Of a stretch of 64,000 bases of DNA, positions 8,181-37,090 are shown one piece after another. A program made the position numbers and the translations under genes. This DNA comes from Raja brachyura (taxonomy: Eukaryota): positions 30,876,001 through 30,940,000 of the forward strand of contig OY740783.1 of NCBI GenBank assembly GCA_963514005.1, in the 5' to 3' direction. Below the pieces are notes generated by a model that saw nothing but the letters and a program-made list of their open reading frames with translations, was not told where the DNA came from and made no database searches. Positions within the stretch are counted from its first letter, which is position 1. Each line of letters begins with the position of its first letter.

Positions 8181-9094
8181 AAGTGCATTGGTTGATGGTT
8201 GAATATCGCTTTACTGGGTGGAGGACTAAATACAGTGAGATCCCACTGTATTCCACTGTATGTTCAATGCTTTTTATGGTATGTTTTAAACAGACTAAGC
8301 TGAATGCACCATATTAGGATGATTGCAAACTACACTAAAATTGGTTATGTAGCTGATAGCATTAAAAAATATTGTAGGCTGCAGAAAGATATCTCCAGTG
8401 TTCAATCCTGACCTGACCTTGCACACTTTCCCTTGGGTTTATCTCCAGTTTCTCCAGTTTTCTCATGCAAACACAATAAGTTAGTTGGGTACTGGAAATC
8501 ACCTCTTAGTATCGACAATTGGCCAAAGAATGAAAGGGAAGTATGAGAGAAATTAAGTTGGGTTACTTTTTATGAAAAATGGCTTTTGGTTTAAATGAAA
8601 AGTATGGCAAGGGAGCTCGGTCCGATGTGCAACCTCGACTATGTGGGATTTCCAGACACTCCTCTGGCCTGGATGACTTCATCCACAGGAATGTTTGAGC
8701 ATCAGCCAGAGACATTCTGGTGCATCTGAGAAGCTGGGAGTTATATTGATAGCATATTAATACAAGTGGGTCATCACGCAGCTTACAGAAATCCTCAGAG
8801 ATGGAATGGATGGTCATCGGGCAGATGAAGAAAAGCTGGCAGTCAGGGAAGCCTCAGGGCACATCAAAGGATCGAACCATTTTTTCTGCAGTTGAAAATG
8901 GTCAGATTAAATGTTCCTTTGGAGAGAACAGCCCATAGCCCAATCCAAGTCCCTTCATTGTTGAGAGCTTGGTAGAAGATTAAAGAGCAGAATCTCTAAA
9001 GTTGAAATCTCCACTGCCTAGTGCTAGAAAGATAGGCCAGATTAATGCATGAGAAGATGATGCAGAAGGGAGGTCTTTCAATTTTCAGGATGAC

Positions 9095-9721
9095 AGGAAA
9101 AAAGTGAATGGCATGTTGACCTTCACAAGAGGAGTTGAGTATAGGAGCAAAGAGGTTCTCCTGCAGTTGTACAGGGCCCTCGTGAGACCACACCTGGAGT
9201 ATAGTGTGCAGTTTGTGTCTCTAAATTTGACGAATTACATTCTTGTTAGTGAGGGATTGCAGCGTAGGTTCACAAGGTTAATTCCCGGGATAGCGGGACT
9301 GTCATATGCTGAGAGAATCGAGCAGCTGGGCTTGTATACTCTGGAATTTAGGATGAGAGGGAATCTTATTGAAACATATAAGATTATTAAGGGTTTGGAC
9401 ACGCTAGAGGCAGGTAACATGTTCCCGATGTTGGGGAATCCAGAACCAGGGGCCACAATTTAAGAATAAGGGGTAAACCATTTAGAACGAGATGAGGAAA
9501 CACTTTTTCACACAGAGAGTGAATACTGGACACTTTGAAGAAAGAGCTAGATAGGGCTCTTAAAAATAGTGGAGTCAGGGGATATGGGGAGAAGGCAGGA
9601 AAGGGGTACTGATTGTGGATGACCAGCCATAATCACATTGAATGGCGGGGCTGGCTCGAAGGGCTGAATGGCCTAATCCTGTACCTATTGTCTATTGTCT
9701 ATTGTCTATTGTTGTCTATTG
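9095..9721 (+). mobile_element. CR1 LINE 3' end with (TATTGTC)n tail
   Basis: ORF 9104-9463 contains [12 protein letters not shown] (CR1 RT C-terminus). Near-identical to 21960-22609. Confidence 0.9.
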
Positions 9722-11524: not shown

Positions 11525-11749
11525 TTTATGTGGAGGAAGGAACTGCAGATGCTGGTTTAAACCGAAGATAAATACAAAAAGCTGGGAGTAACGACCGGCA
11601 ATGGGACAGTGGGACAGGCAGCATCTCTGGAGAGAAGGAATAGGTGACGTTACGTGTCGAAGAAGGGTCTCCACCTGAAACGTCACCCATTCCTTCTCTC
11701 CAGAGATGCTGCCTATGCTGCTGAGTTACTCCAGCTTTTTGTGTCTATC
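11525..11749. mobile_element. Short fold-back Penelope terminal-repeat insertion
   Basis: Inverted arms around ...tcga|agaagggtctccacctgaaacgtcacc. 12-bp TSD TTCACCTTATCT at 11513-11524 and 11750-11761. Confidence 0.8.
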
Positions 11750-13285: not shown

Positions 13286-14063
13286 ATATAGACACAAAAA
13301 GCTGGAGTAACTCAACAGGACAAGCAGCATCTATGGTGAGAAGGAATGGTTCTTCAGACTGGTTAGGGAAATTAGAGATATAGACGGTGATGTGGAGAGA
13401 TAAAGAACAATGAATGAAAGATATGCAAAAAAGTAATGGTGATAAAGGAAACAGGCCATTGTAAGTTGTTTGTAGGGTGAAAATGAGAAGCTAGTGCAAC
13501 TTGGGTGGGGAGGGATGAGAGAGAGAGAATGCCAGGGCTACCTGAAGTGAGAGAAATCACTAATCATACCACTGGGCTGTAAGTTGCCCAAGCAAAACAT
13601 GAGATGCTGTTCCTCCAATTTGCGTTTAGCCTCACTCTGACAATGGAGGAGACATTGGACCGAAAGATCTGTTGAGGAATGGGAATGAGAATAAAAGTGT
13701 CCAGCAACCAGGAGATCAGGAAGGTTGAGGCTGACTGAGCGAAGGTGTTAAGCAGAACATTCCCTCTCTCTCTATCCCTCCCCAAGTCGCACTAGCTTCT
13801 CATTTTCACCCTACAAACAGCTAACAATGGTCTGTTTCCGTTATCATCGTCACTTTTTGCATATCTTTTATTCATTGTTCTTTACCTCTCCACATCACCG
13901 TCTATATCTCTCGTTTCCCTTATCCCTAACCAGTCTGAAGAAAGATCTCAACCCAAAATGTCACCCATTCCATCTCTCCAGAAATGCTGCCTGTCCCGCT
14001 GAGTTACTCCAGCTTTTTGTGTCCATCTTTGATTTAAACCAGCATCTGCAGTTCCTTCTTACA
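13286..14063 (-). mobile_element. Penelope-like 3' fragment with an inverted terminal repeat
   Basis: GIY-YIG C-terminal coding on the minus strand at ~13540-13755, flanked by ~250-bp inverted repeats (~13288-13531 vs ~13758-14030). Confidence 0.8.
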
Positions 14064-17959: not shown

Positions 17960-18220
17960 GGTCAAAACACAAAGTGCTGAAGTAACTCAGGGGATCAGAC
18001 AGCACCTGTAGAGGGAATGGACAGGTAACATATCGGGTTGGGGGCCTTCTTCAGGCTCTTACCCAAGGTCTTTACTGGGCCATAGGAATATACACTTTAA
18101 GGTAGAAAGGAACTACCAATCTGTCTGAAAAAGGATCCCGACCCAAAGCGTTGCCAATCCATTTTCTCCAGAGATGCTGCCTGACCTGCTGAGTTACTCC
18201 AGTAATTTGTGTTTTTTCTT
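17960..18220. mobile_element. Degenerate fold-back Penelope terminal-repeat copy
   Basis: acacaaagtgctgaagtaactcag... inverted against ...ctgagttactccagtaatttgtg. Decayed hammerhead remnants on both strands. Confidence 0.6.
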
Positions 18221-20475: not shown

Positions 20476-21088
20476 CTTAAGGATGAACTGCAGATGCTGG
20501 TTAATTCGAAGGTGGACAAAAAATGCTGGAGTAACTCAGCAGGTGGGGCAGCATCTATGGAGAGAAGGAATTGGCAATGTTTCAGGTCGTGACCCTTCGT
20601 CAGACCGATGTCAGGGGAGGGGGCGGGACAAATAAAGAATGTACGCGGAGACAGTAGGACTAGTGGGAGAACTGGGAAGGGGGAGGGGATGGAGAGAGAA
20701 AGCAGGGGATACCTAAAGTTAGAGAAATCAATGTTCATTCCGCTGGGATGTAAACTACCCCAGCGAAATATGAGGTGCTGTTCCTCCAATTTATGTTGGG
20801 CCTCACTCTGACAATGGAGGAGGCCCAGGACAGAAAGGTCAGATTGGGAATGGGAGGGGGAGTTGAAGTTCTGGGCCACCGGGAGATCAGGTTGGTTATT
20901 GCGAACCGAGCGGAGGTGTTGGGCGAAACGATCGCGAAGCCTACGCTTGGTCTCACCGATGCAGACTGAGCTTGGTTAATGCGGACTGAACGGAGGGACT
21001 TCTCTAAGTTCAGGTAGCCCCTGCTTTCTCGCTCAATCCCCTCCCCCTTCCCAATTCTCCCACTGGTGCCTCTGTCTACATTCTTTCT
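20476..21088 (-). mobile_element. Penelope-like 3' end (GIY-YIG endonuclease plus terminal repeat with hammerhead) with an inverted segment
   Basis: Minus strand encodes (C)IGETKRRLRDRFAQHLRSVRNNQPDLPVAQNFNSPSHSQSDLSVLGLLHCQSEAQHKLEEQHLIFRWGSLHPSGMNIDFSNFR. Hammerhead ggt-CTGACGA-agggtcacgacct-GAAA-cattgcc at ~20573-20606 (-). 20996-21085 is an inverted copy of ~20635-20730. Confidence 0.85.
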
Positions 21089-21094
21089 TTGTTG

Positions 21095-22609
21095 TGTCTC
21101 TAGAAATCGTGGATGCATTGGTGATCATTTTCCAATGTTCTATAGATTCAGGATCAGTTCCTGTGGATTGGAGGGCAGCTAATGTTATCCCACTTTTAAA
21201 GAAAGGCGGGAGAGAGAAAACAGGGAATTATACACCAGTTAGCCTGACATCGGTGGTGGGGAAGATGCTGGAGTCAATCATAAAAGATGCAATAGCGGCA
21301 CGTTTGGATAGCAGTAATAGGATCGGAGCGAGTCAGCATGGATTTACGAAGGGGAAGTCATGCTTGACTAATCTTCTGGAATTTTTTGAGGATGTAACTA
21401 GGAAAATGGACAAGGGGGAGCCAGTGGATGTAGTGTACCTGGACTTTCAGAAAGCATTTGATAAGGTCCCACATAGGAGATTAGTGGGCAATATTAGGGC
21501 ACATGGTATTGAGGTGCTGACATGGATAGCAAATTGGTTGGCAGACAGGAAACAAAGTAAGGATTAACAGGTCCCTTTCAGAATGACAGGCAGTGACCAG
21601 TGGGGTACCTCAAGACTCGATGCTGGGACTGCAGCTATTTACAATATACATCAATGATTTAGATGTAGGGATTCGAAGGAACATTAGCAAATTTGCAGAT
21701 GACACAAAGCTGGGTGGCAGTGTGAACTGTGAGGAGGATGCTATCAGAATGCAGGGTGAATTGGGCAGGTTGCATGAGTGGGCAGATGCATAGCAGATGC
21801 TGTTTAATGTGGATAAATGTGAGGTTATCCACTTTGGTAGCAAAAACAGAAAGGCAGATTATTATCTAAATTGTGTCAAGTTGGGAAAAGGGGATGTGCA
21901 AGGGGATCTCGGGGGTCCTTGATCACCAGACAATGAAAGTAAGCATGCAGTTGCAGCAGGCAGTGAAGAAAGCGAGTGGCATGTTGGCCTTCATAACAAG
22001 AGGAGTATAGGAGCAAAGAGGTCCTTGCAGTTGTACAGGGCCCTAGTGAGACCACACCTGGAGTATTGTGTGCAGTTTTGGTCCCCTAATTTGAGGAAGG
22101 ACATTCTTGCTATTGAGGGAGTGTAGCATAGGTTTACAAGGTTACATGGGATGGTGGGACTGTCATATGCTGAGAGAATGGAGTGGCTGGGCTTGTATAA
22201 TCTGGAATTTAGAAGGAGATCTTATTGAAACATATAAGATTATAAAGTGTTTGGACATGCTAGAGGCAGGAAACATGTTCCCGATGTTGGGGGAGTCCAG
22301 AACCAGGGGCCACATTTTAAGAATAAGGGGTAAGCCATTTAGAACGGAGATGAGGAAACACTTTTTCACACAGAGAGTTGTGAGTCTGTGGAATTCTCTG
22401 CTTCAGAGGGCAGTGGAGGCTGGTTCTCTGGATACTTTCAAGAGAGAGCTAGATAGGGCTCTTAAAGATAGCGGAGTCAGGGGATATGGGGAGAAGGCAG
22501 GAACGGGGTACTGATTGGGGATGATCAGCCATGATCACAGTGAATGGCGGTACTGGCTCGAAGGGCCGAATGGCGTACTCCTGCACCTATTGTCTATTGT
22601 CTATTGTCT
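21095..22609 (+). mobile_element. 5'-truncated CR1 LINE, RT pseudogene
   Basis: YTPVSLTSVVGKMLESII, QHGFTKGKSCLTNLLEFFEDVT, YLDFQKAFDKVPH, GVPQ, FADDTKLGG. Frameshifts and stops present. (CTATTGT)n tail. Confidence 0.93.
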
Positions 22610-26996: not shown

Positions 26997-27125
26997 CCTC
27001 AACAAGTGCAACTGAAAATGATGAAAAGCAAAATTAAAAAAAAATAAAACAGGTATGTTCTATGGTTACACAAAAAGCTGGAGAAACTCAGCGGGTGCAG
27101 CAGCATCTAAGGAGCGAAGGAGATA

Positions 27126-27160
27126 GGCAACGTTTCGGGTCGAGACCCTTCTTCAGACTG
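27126..27160 (-). ncRNA. Minimal type I hammerhead ribozyme motif, opposite-strand copy
   Basis: The minus strand reads cagt-CTGAAGA-A-GGGTCTCGACCC-GAAA-C-GTT-gcc, with an intact core and a GUU triplet. Confidence 0.62.
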
Positions 27161-27188
27161 AAGAAGGGTCTCGACCCGAAACGTCGCC
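27158..27188 (+). ncRNA. Minimal type I hammerhead ribozyme motif (Penelope-type)
   Basis: CTGAAGA (27158-64), A, stem II GGGT-CTCG-ACCC, GAAA (27178-81), C, GTC cleavage triplet. The palindromic ACGT replaces helix III, as in dimeric minimal hammerheads. The 5' strand of stem I is lost at the inversion point. Confidence 0.65.
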
Positions 27189-27951
27189 TATCTCCTTCGC
27201 TCCTTAGATGCTGCTGCACCCGCTGAGTTTCTCCAGGTTTTTGTGTAACCCTCGATTCTCCAGCATCTGCAGTTCCTTCTTTAACAAGTATGTTCTATGT
27301 TTCTGCCATTGTTATCACACCCTTCATCCTCCCATTTGTGAAAGAATTGAACACTTCCACTGACCTCATGATTCATGCATTATGTTTATGTAAACAAATG
27401 TTATGTTAAATGTAAAAATAAAAACTCACAATTAAAAAAACTGATAGGAAATGGCGTCATTTTTAAAATATTGCAGATGCATTTAGCCTTTAATTTTCAT
27501 ACAAAAATCTCAACATGTTTCCTGGCATATTAATATAATTGGTACTTTAATTTATTCATCACAATGTAGTTATACCCAAAATTTTATCTTTAACTCGTGA
27601 CAGTCTTGCTTAATTGCAGAGACTATCTTTTCAGGGTGTTACGCTTTCAAGACCTTTCGAATGAAAATACATCTATGAAAAGTATTTGGAAAGCAAACTC
27701 AGAACATTAGACATGAAATAGATGTCAAATGTATAAGTCATAATTTCATATCAACCTTTTCCCTTAAATGTCAATGCAAATAAAAATATGTCTGTAACAT
27801 TTTTGGATATACATCTTTATTGGTTTCATATGATAACCTTCTTGGCATAAGAATTTATTGCACATCTGTTCTGTGTTTTCTTTTTTATTAGAAGAAAGGG
27901 ATGAAACAAATCAACTCCCCCCCCCCCCCCCCACCACCCCCCCCCCCCACC

Positions 27952-30349: not shown

Positions 30350-33025
30350 CTTACACCATGACCTTACACTGTACAATAAGGTCAGGTGTGATCTACATAA
30401 GCCTTTCAGGGATGCCAAGTGAAATAAACAAGTTAATCAAATGGATATCCAATGACTACGGTAGAGCCTACATATCACCAGGGCTAACAAGCCAAAGTCG
30501 GTGGTGATCTCTGTCAATGACACATCTCTTTCAGATGATCTTAATGCTCTTTGTGTCCATTTTGTACAGGCAAACAAAGCTTGACCTATGTCTTTACCAC
30601 CTCCCCCACTGGCTCTGTCCCACACATCTTGGTGGCAGAAGTCAACCTGCTTTTACAAGGGTGCACTCTTGGAAGGTAGACGGCCCAGATGTACAGCCTC
30701 GTCAGGTTCTAAAATTGTGCACCAATCAACCAGCAACAGTCTTTGCTGGCAACTTGAACCTATCATCTCCATTGTCTTTTGTTCCCATCTCCTTCAAGGA
30801 AATCTCCCATCATCCCAAAACACATATTCTTCCAGGAAACCTCCAATCCCCAAGCAAAATTAAGTAACCTGTCTCAAAGACTACTGCTCAGAAGTTCTAA
30901 CATTGACCAAAATGAAGTGCTTTGAAAGACTGGTAATGGCCCACATTTGCAACAATCTTCTGGATAATCCAAACACCCCACAATTTAAATACAGAATATG
31001 TGGGTCTCTGCAGGATGCCATCTACCTTTTAGAAACATAGAAACATAGAAAAATAAGTACAGGAGTAGGCCATTCGGCCTTTGAGCCTGCACCGCCATTC
31101 AATATGATCATAGCTGATCATCCAACTCAATATCCCGTACCTGCCTTCTCTCCATACCCCCTGATCCCTTTAGCCACAAGAGCCACATCCAACTCCCTCT
31201 TGAATATAGCCAATGAACTGGCCTCAACGACCTTCTGTGGCAGAGAATTCCAGAGACTCACCACTCTCTGTGTAAAGAATGTTTTCCTTATCTCGGTCCT
31301 AAAGGAATTCCCCCTTATCCTTAGACTGTGAACCCTTGTTCTGGACTCCCCCAACATTGGGAACAATCTTCCTGCATCTAGCTTGTCCAACCCCTTAAGA
31401 ATTTTGTAAGTTTCTATAAGATCCCCCCTCAATCGTCTAAATTTCAGTGAGTACAAGCCGAGTCTATCCAGTCTTTCTTCATATGAAAGTCCCGACATCC
31501 CAGGAATCAGTCTGATGAACCTTCTCTGAACCCCCCTAAATTTTACTACATTTAGCCCTGGATTACCTTGACAATAAGAACACCTATTTCAGAATGCTGT
31601 GCATTGACTATAGTTCAGCCTTCAACACCATAATTCCAAATAAGCTCATCCCTAAACCTCTGGAACTTGGCCTAGCGGATTCCATCTGTAACTGGCTTCT
31701 AGACTTCTCAACCGACAGACCTCGGTAGGTTAGAATTAGTCAGAACATTTCCCCCACCCAGACCCTCAACACTGGTGGCCCTCAGTCCTTTGCATTGCTC
31801 CCTGTACGCCCACGGCTTAGTGGCCAAATACAATGCCAGAAAGATCTTTAATTTCAAGAAAGATACCACTGTTGTAGGTCTGATCCAGAACAATAATGAG
31901 ATGAAGTACAGGAAAGAGATCAAGAACCTAGTGTCATGGTATCATGACGATAACCTAATCCTAAACATCAGCAAAACAAAAGGGTTGGTTATTGACTGAA
32001 GCAAGCAGGGGGGTGAACAAAACCCTGTCCTCTTCAACAGAGTTGTTGTAGAGAGGTCAACAGCCTTCACGTTTAGAGGAATCCATATCACCACAACCTA
32101 ACCTGCTCCCCTTGCATTTTTGAGATGATCAAGAAAGCACATCAGCATATTCACTTTCTCAGACATTTGTGAAAATGCGGCATGTTCACGGAATTTTCTT
32201 CAAGATTCAAGAGAGTTCATTGTCATGTGTCCCTGATAGGACAATGAAATTCTTGCTTTGCTTCAGCACAACAGAACACAGTAAGCATGACTACAGAACA
32301 GATCAGTGTGTCCATATACCATTATATAAATATATACACACATTAATAAATAAACTGATAAAGTGCATCTGCAGAAGTGCAACCTGCAGATGCACTAAAG
32401 AAGGTATTCTGATGGGATGCACTCAATCTGGTAAGGTCTCCTGAACCTGCAGAGAGTGATGAATGCAGCCTAGTCCATCACAGGCTCGTCATTTCCTTCC
32501 ATCCTGTCCACCTTCATGGTGCTTTGCATCAGGAAGGTTGAAAGTATCATCAAGGCTGCCTGTCACCCTGGCCATTCCCTTTCCTTTCTACTTCTTTCTG
32601 AAAGATACAGGAGCTTGAAAGCTCAATATTGCTAGTGTACGGGGTGATCGCTGGTTAGCGCGGACTCAATGAGCCAAAGAGCCTGTTTCCGCACTGTATC
32701 TCTACATTCTAAAGAAAAGCCCAGACTTAAGAACAGCTTTTTCTCCCACTGTCATCCAGCTCCTGAACCAATTACTTCTTTCACACCCCATTCTGCATTC
32801 TTAACTCTATCTCGTTTGCTTTTTCCGTCATTGCACCTTGATATTATTTTGCACTACTCGGATTTCACGCTACAATCTTGCACCATTCTACTGTTTTGCA
32901 CTAATTGTTGTATTTATTATTGTATTTATCATTACTGTGTGAATACTGCTTAATCTGTGAGCTTCATGTGAACAAGGAATTTCATTGCAGCCTGATGTAT
33001 ATGACAACAAATTACCTTAATCTAA
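30350..33025 (+). mobile_element. Degenerate Rex1/Babar-type LINE with nested insertions
   Basis: [38 protein letters not shown]...[16 protein letters not shown] and NISKTKGLVID. Interrupted by CR1 (31030-31535), a LINE tail (~32197-32368) and a SINE tail (~32630-32705). Confidence 0.8.
31030..31535 (-). mobile_element. CR1 LINE 3' end nested in the Rex1-like element
   Basis: Minus ORF 31127-31498 LSYEERLDRLGLYSL...FFTQRVVSLWNSLP. (TAGAAACA)n tail on the plus strand. Confidence 0.9.
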
Positions 33026-36520: not shown

Positions 36521-37090
36521 TTTAGTTTAGAGACACAGCGCGGAAACAGGCCCTTTTCGGCCCACCGGGACCACGCCGACCAGCGATCCCCGCACATTAA
36601 CACTAACCTACGCACATTAGGGACAATGTTTACATTCACCAAGCCAATTAACCTGCAAACCTGACACGATGCGAGTTCACCCAATTTAAAAAAAAATCAA
36701 ACTCGTGGTATGTACGGAGCGGGTATGTAGGGCCTCGTGAATGTCCCATAGCGGCTCGTAATGCTAACGGCATGTACTCAGAAAACGCGCTAACACGTGA
36801 AGCTTTATCAACACTGTGAAAAATGTCCAAGAGTTTCCCAAGTACCTGCCGTTAGTTGCAGCGTTTCCTGAGTACCTGCCGTTCACATTACGAGCCGCTA
36901 CAGGCCATCCATGAGGTCCTATGTACCCGCAACGTACATACCTCGAGTTTGATTTTTTTTTTAACTCGGGAGAGCTCTTGGGTGAACTCGCATCGTGGGA
37001 CAGGGGCGTAAAAGTCTTTGGTATGTGGGAGGAAACCAAAGATCTCAGAGAAAACCCACGCTGTCACAGGGAGAACTACAAATTCTCCCT
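36521..37090 (-). mobile_element. HE1-like V-SINE split by a MITE
   Basis: SINE tail and body at 36521-36660 resume with the V-domain at 37008-37090. Confidence 0.75.
36661..37007. mobile_element. Harbinger-like MITE with ~130-bp imperfect TIRs
   Basis: cacgatgcgagttcacccaa...aaatcaaactcg...agcggctcgtaatg is inverted against cattacgagccgct...cgagtttgattt...ttgggtgaactcgcatcgtgggacaggggc. Confidence 0.75.

Follow-up and report, generated by a model that had tools for sequence, protein, structure and literature searches.

How does a genome come to carry a near-perfect palindrome that opens, on each of its strands, with the core of a hammerhead ribozyme? The question is raised by a locus in a 64,000-nucleotide stretch of Raja brachyura DNA, all of which was analysed and which is called the window below. 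An initial annotation had described two 93-bp arms around a single A, a hammerhead core at the start of each arm and a target-site duplication (TSD) of 12 bp, or of 17 bp with one mismatch, and all of this was reproduced (Table 1). The arms differ only at offsets 28 (27129/27185) and 80 (27077/27237), and the central base is A27157. Both open with CTGAAGA-A-GGGT(CTCG)ACCC-GAAA-C-GTH, which ends in GTC on the + strand and in GTT on the - strand, the latter through a C>T change at a CpG that is private to the window copy. The exact TSD reads GTATGTTCTATG. The TSD-bounded insert measures 223 bp (27064-27286) and is longer than the palindrome, because the right arm continues as a tail. The young age proposed for the insertion is upheld.

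Table 1. Features of the insert and of an older related copy (positions in the window)
Feature	Position	Strand	Description
Older 5'-truncated copy of the same Penelope-like (PLE) type	20479..20975	-	GIY-YIG-type C-terminus, stop, ~105-nt 3' UTR, hammerhead, arm, tail
Left TSD	27048..27064	+	12 bp exact at 27053-27064; final G common to TSD and arm
Tail-less arm	27064..27156	-	Inverted PLE leader, +1 to +93
Minimal hammerhead core	27129..27156	-	Ends in GUU; helix I of 2 pairs only
Junction AG-A-CT	27155..27159		Arm overlap at the inferred RNA 5' end (AGUCU)
Minimal hammerhead core	27158..27185	+	CUGAAGA 27158-64, bulged A 27165, helix II 27166-77, GAAA 27178-81, CGUC 27182-85; descriptor from the accessible part of PMC4209133
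Tailed arm	27158..27250	+	Leader positions +1 to +93
PLE tail, 36 bp	27251..27286	+	Leader positions +94 to +129; compare PMC11167929 and PMC3846280 (accessible parts)
Right TSD	27283..27299	+	12 bp exact at 27288-27299; initial AACA overlaps the tail end

We considered whether the palindrome was an artefact of the assembly. In the 2.7-Gb genome there are 56,976 exact matches to a 28-mer of the arm, and a search for head-to-head arm pairs returned 4,885 (reversed control: 0). The artefact is ruled out because these pairs have flanks and TSDs specific to each. The window palindrome is one of thousands of like insertions, not a rare event.

A Penelope-like origin, as given in the initial annotation for ribozymes of this kind, was borne out by the parent element. 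By extending the search with the sequence past the tail, we reached full-length units of 4.04 kb that stand in tandem and have an ATG at about +164, a YIDD motif, the motif CNRKRCYTC and a GIY-YIG-type end. At locus L279 three leaders are spaced 4.04 kb apart and at L278 three are spaced about 3.93 kb apart, the tandem or partial-tandem arrangement of pLTRs; the 3.8-kb spacing at L276/L277 was also considered as tandem elements and is a segmental duplication instead. Arm plus tail is 97.7% identical over 129 nt to the leader of the full-length copies in L279. A frame of 774 aa contains YIDD and YIGET..RF.EH, and neither of its Pfam matches, RVT_1 (E 4e-4) and GIY-YIG (E 9e-4), reached the curated cut-off. 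A PDB search with this RT-EN frame gave no match, and neither did a Pfam search of the endonuclease fragment in the window. When that fragment was used to find endonuclease loci, 26 of 30 carried the arm about 100 nt behind the stop. Since the 4.04-kb units share the leader and the endonuclease loci carry the arm behind their stop, we assign both arms to the 5' leader (pLTR) of a 4.0-kb EN+ Penelope-like element, which combines RT with a C-terminal GIY-YIG endonuclease as EN+ PLEs do. An inverted 5'-truncated copy, a 30-40-bp tail at one end and a TSD, likewise expected of EN+ PLEs, are all present. The linker motif CX2-5CxxC between RT and EN defines the Neptune/Nematis type in the accessible part of PMC8557442; CNRKRCYTC has this form and marks the parent element as Neptune/Nematis-type. 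At L279 (3501-4541 and 865-3189, - strand) the young full-length element has a long proline-rich region that separates the N-terminal part from the RT; in both tandem copies these parts are read in different frames.

The PLE repeat also occurs in the window as over a dozen older copies, some as inverted pairs (11607-11723, 17964-18215 and 991-1114; 75-89% complementary). At 13428-13858, 84-nt inverted arms of PLE 3' UTR surround an apparent reversed endonuclease-end sequence, probably a longer inverted PLE junction.

We next compared the ends of copies across the genome. Single copies end outside at two fixed points, at about +129 (about 23/75, tailed) and about +94 (about 52/75, tail-less), by a manual count in which a few rows are arms whose partner missed the exact pattern. 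In pairs the two end points are combined: 45/47 and 47/50 pairs in two genome-order samples, drawn mostly from contigs C1-C2, consist of one tailed and one tail-less arm. If the ends were chosen independently, no more than 50% of pairs would be of this kind (p about 1e-11 for 45/47). We infer that the outer end of the tail-less arm (about +93/+94) is the inner fixed end point and the inner RT start site, and that the tail end (~+129) is the outer fixed end point and the outer RT start site. The TSDs of pairs are 10-18 bp long (mode 15, n=107) and 66% A+T. From the 140-row pair sample, 15 rows were dropped as duplicates (one of them, L029, may share only a flanking repeat) and 7 fell below the pair threshold. 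L109, a candidate tail-less/tail-less pair, looks like a young arm nested within an older copy.

The arms of a pair are copied from the same template. Among 116 pairs, the variant +42 G>A is present in both arms of 20 and in one arm of 4, with 4.6 expected from random pairing, and CpG decay at +15, +20 and +41 is mirrored in no pair (single-arm cases: 10, 8 and 6). Gene conversion is unlikely as the source of the matching arms, because CpG decay is never mirrored between them. The pairs are made afresh at each insertion site, since they have their own TSD, a centre that differs widely among copies in the genome-order samples, one tailed and one tail-less arm, and subfamily variants common to both arms. 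The earlier suggestion that the inversion is made during reverse transcription is upheld. Most young copies are single arms. Two arrangements stand apart. At L141 (590-960) both arms begin with GAGT, and the junction between them is filled with about 150 nt templated by neighbouring host DNA. At L143 (G000:C1:1532495-1532653) a tailed and a tail-less young copy, both reaching into the 3' UTR, lie tail to tail about 20 bp apart.

The junction was placed correctly at the 5' edge of the ribozyme by the initial annotation. Across the genome the centre is A in 380 pairs and T in about 370, the latter estimated from 554 matches of which 20/30 loci were true T centres, with A and T patterns of different length. 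The tail-less arm reaches further 5' in 20/45 and 27/47 pairs and the tailed arm in 14/45 and 16/47, a few assignments being wrong at indels or in older subfamilies. Junctions at helix-II microhomology occur in both orientations (6 vs 5). Short single copies start between -3 and +1 in 26/46 cases and at the cut site in 1/46. In 17,088 exact copies the sequence starts at A(-3) after a non-template base, which is G in 7,103 and A or T in 9,985. G is modestly enriched at -4 and A is about equally common (68 among the first 100 A/T matches listed), so that an extra G lends a cap only modest support. The context CCAGTCT / TCAGTCT fits an initiator consensus, and transcription would start at A(-3). 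No shared upstream exon was seen in the short copies that would point to a splice-acceptor reading of CAG|TCTG. An internal promoter is described for Drosophila Penelope in the accessible part of PMC2377424. Because single-arm copies stop at the same place, the centre of the palindrome most likely marks the transcript start and not ribozyme action; the hammerhead would stand at the centre because it forms the first 31 nt of the RNA.

The reading that we favour, with a probability of about 0.65, is that the 223-bp insert consists of two head-to-head leaders made in a single insertion event by twin target-primed reverse transcription. The PLE endonuclease would cut both target strands about 15 nt apart. 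Priming would then occur twice on a single RNA, from one target 3' end at the outer internal start site (~+129) and from the other at the inner one (~+94). Both cDNAs would run to the RNA 5' end at A(-3), probably a capped start, without a jump to the RNA 3' end, and the hammerhead would usually be uncut when the RNA is copied. The cDNA ends, both AGACT-3', could pair over 5 bp around an A:A mismatch at the centre, which would be repaired to A or T; the annealing therefore predicts both A and T centres. Such a two-ended model also predicts strict tail/no-tail pairing, a same template, symmetric junctions and an A/T centre ratio of about 1:1. For both arms to copy the same 93 nt, either strand displacement is needed or an intact RNA has to be used again. 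In the accessible part of PMC11167929, a lizard PLE protein (PAc) nicks and extends both strands in vitro, two internal start sites bound the tail, and the protein is predicted to dimerise. Against twin priming, Frangieh et al. report there that start sites do not differ between the strands, in an assay that leaves coupling of the sites aside. Among the openly available papers covered by a literature search, none puts forward twin priming for PLEs. All evidence for twin priming comes from finished insertions. Remodelling of the centre after insertion could give the two-sided variety of junctions from a fold-back product, and matching arms would likewise arise if two RNAs came from a single dominant source locus.

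A more general proposal, to which we would give even odds, is that PLE insertion is an obligate two-ended priming by a protein dimer on one RNA, with one fixed site per strand. The tail would then be the distance between subunits and the inverted pLTR the second cDNA. The cDNAs would end at the RNA end, mostly the capped start (AGACT annealing, A:A mismatch) and rarely the hammerhead cut, which would yield GATAGGCCTATC-centred pairs. If so, the latter pairs would preserve, in the genome, traces of germline cutting by a minimal hammerhead.

The initial annotation had instead suggested fold-back or template switching at the ribozyme end. On the fold-back reading the tailed cDNA, having come to the RNA end or stalled at the ribozyme, would fold over, copy itself to about +94 and be resolved by the endonuclease, and later deletions or flips of the centre would add variety. 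This would account for matching arms and a one-sided tail; self-priming is proposed in the accessible part of PMC3846280, and in that of PMC8557442 the general PLE scheme attributes the tail to endonuclease resolution. Helix II can also fold into a hairpin in the cDNA, and 5/11 helix-II junctions have the fold-back orientation, but 6/11 have the opposite one. A fold-back that copies the tailed cDNA cannot reach further 5', and the longer tail-less arm in 47/92 pairs thus speaks against it. So do the 380 A centres, as common as T, since with a right-hand tail fold-back yields a T centre alone. A stem of 2 bp closed by a 1-nt loop is an implausible primer, and TSD-bounded single copies have their outer end at +94 as well. 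With single copies, moreover, stopping at the same place as pairs, we consider fold-back unlikely and do not favour the ribozyme as its cause. Twin priming might also take place on two RNA molecules, held by the protein dimer or paired via the ACGU palindrome of the hammerhead. The symmetry of the junctions fits this equally well, minimal hammerheads act as dimers (PMC4209133, accessible part), and in 2/50 short pairs (L317, L356) one arm runs from the cut site and the other from +1. It is quite improbable in view of the subfamily variants common to both arms, at about the rate that leaves CpG decay alone, the nearly strict tail/no-tail pairing, and pairs in which both arms start from the rare +29 point.

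Two further readings were considered. The palindrome might be a mini-element of fixed sequence, SINE-like, MITE-like or built on a double ribozyme, that spreads as a unit, and the 223-227-bp layout was found in 40/40 scored best matches; those matches, however, were selected for their likeness. In the genome-order samples the centre varies from copy to copy, pairs come from several subfamilies, the two arms mirror rare variants, and single arms prevail among young copies. A MITE would have a fixed internal sequence and a short TSD of fixed length, in contrast to the variable centres and 10-18-bp TSDs seen here. Variable centres and same-template arms in each pair led us to reject the mini-element, which is largely refuted and very improbable. 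It is scarcely credible that the insert is a dsRNA or cruciform element selected by the host near a COUP-TF gene. A hairpin is predicted (-186 kcal/mol as RNA, as the initial annotation expected of a transcript, and -120 as DNA), and the COUP-TF gene begins about 33.6 kb downstream, but the genome has about 4,900 young pairs nearly identical to this insert, and its two arm differences resemble ordinary decay. Read-through RNA would, on this folding prediction, form a long hairpin that masks both hammerhead cores. Among the contigs listed from 24 sequencing runs, whose RNA status was mostly a guess, none covers the palindrome, which is uninformative about its transcription. We regard the window copy as young and neutral; most likely it is a functionless, dead by-product of twin priming.

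The arms contain the minimal type I core (CUGANGA / GAAA / UH, helix II, G10.1-C11.1) and the palindromic positions 15.2-16.2 (ACGU), which permit a dimer helix III, as the initial annotation had stated. Helix I has 2 pairs in the family (AGU/GCC or AGU/ACC) instead of 4-5 bp and is nearly absent in the window copy, where A27157 cannot pair with G27186 on the + strand and only 2 pairs form on the - strand. The + strand core is predicted to be cut after 27185, in the window copy without a helix I. The suggested Rfam check did not find the motif: a search of the 64-kb window returned no hammerhead among 9 matches at E<=1, and its miRNA matches are hairpin noise below gathering scores. In the folded leader the hammerhead had a pair probability <0.01, so the predicted fold does not favour the ribozyme. 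Among 81 older copies, core positions are conserved at 0.94 vs 0.86 for the downstream leader (p=0.016), but many flank positions are equally invariant.

Copies starting at +29, the cut site, number 204 vs 117 at the +31 control, and are tens of times rarer than those at -3. With 1/46 short single copies and 204 matches against about 17,000 at -3, we rejected the cleavage site as the usual RNA 5' end. Among the first 100 +29 matches listed, 6 are pairs with both arms from +29; five of these are tail/no-tail pairs with a TSD of 8-16 bp and one has a stutter. In an unbiased sample of 50 short pairs, those with both arms from +29 (3/50) are no more frequent than TCGA-centred ones (3/50), and ACGT centres account for 1/50. 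Two stutter arrays repeat leader +29 to +90 inside single insertions (L288-L292, G000:C1:74835269-74835564; L294-L297, C1:117724518-117724730), and they look as if the RT, having run off an RNA end at the hammerhead cut site, had started again from the inner start site. In L317 and L356 the tail-less arm extends to +1 and the tailed arm starts from +29, which would fit cleavage between two priming events, or a 1-nt microhomology. Rare hammerhead cleavage of the leader RNA is plausible from these sequences, and the copies give a hint on minimal hammerhead cutting in vivo.

Several known systems resemble the insert. In the twin priming of L1 attributed to Ostertag and Kazazian, both target strands reportedly prime on one RNA and the arms are joined by microhomology. 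The two L1 arms derive from separate, non-overlapping stretches of the RNA, begun at variable internal points, whereas here the same 93 nt are copied from fixed sites. In rotifer Penelope elements the inverted pLTR is about 37 bp shorter than the direct one and tail-less, which is explained by self-priming (PMC3846280). Pen2/Pen2a of Adineta vaga share with the insert a head-to-head pLTR that is 36-37 bp shorter without a tail, a TSD, a pLTR hammerhead and partial tandems. In contrast to them, the Raja brachyura insert has two leaders only and no coding sequence, and about 4,900 young pairs permit statistics against self-priming. PAc (Poseidon, Anolis carolinensis) is alike in its two internal RT start sites around the tail, the nicking and extension of both strands, its AT-rich targets and a hammerhead that is not needed in vitro (PMC11167929). 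Here, however, both start sites precede the ATG (~+164) and so belong to the 5' UTR, and the linker is Neptune/Nematis-type; the accessible text of the PAc study makes no assignment of one site per strand and leaves inverted pairs unexplained.

Minimal hammerheads reside in pLTRs and are weakly active as dimers (PMC4209133, accessible part). They share with the present motif the core, a bulged base after A9, G10.1-C11.1 and the palindromic 15.2-16.2 without helix III, and Schistosoma pairs on opposite strands are noted 100-700 bp apart. Differences are a helix I of 2 bp here (4-5 bp described), a helix II of 4-5 bp and the apparent position of the motif at the very start of the RNA. Non-LTR retrozymes, in the accessible part of 10.64898/2026.07.22.740005, also have a type I hammerhead and are PLE-related and non-coding. 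They form tandem monomer arrays, whereas here an inverted pair is cut directly from the leader of an autonomous PLE, and no tandem array of hammerhead monomers was found at the window locus.

The element type, the layout (inverted pLTR, one-sided tail) and the ribozyme are already known. Our analysis adds the A/T symmetry of the centre with its explanation by annealing, the two-sided reach counts and the cut-site-centred pairs. The locus is ordinary, and its thousands of siblings bear on how PLEs make inverted pLTRs and one-sided tails. PLEs are the closest mobile relatives of telomerase, and the published suggestions for these features are self-priming and endonuclease resolution.

The surroundings of the insert contain further features. 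At 60888-62756 (+) the window carries COUP-TF (NR2F) exons, with a DNA-binding domain that matches COUP-TF1 (E 2e-46) and a ligand-binding exon recognised by eye at 62139-62756. The stretches 9053-9463, 20980-21567, 22095-22514 and 31127-31588 are what we take to be CR1/L2-type LINE RT and C-terminal fragments. Two unrelated MITE-like inverted-repeat elements lie at 36680-36969 (109-nt arms) and 44081-44237 (55-nt arms), the latter adjoining an (ACAT)n tract.
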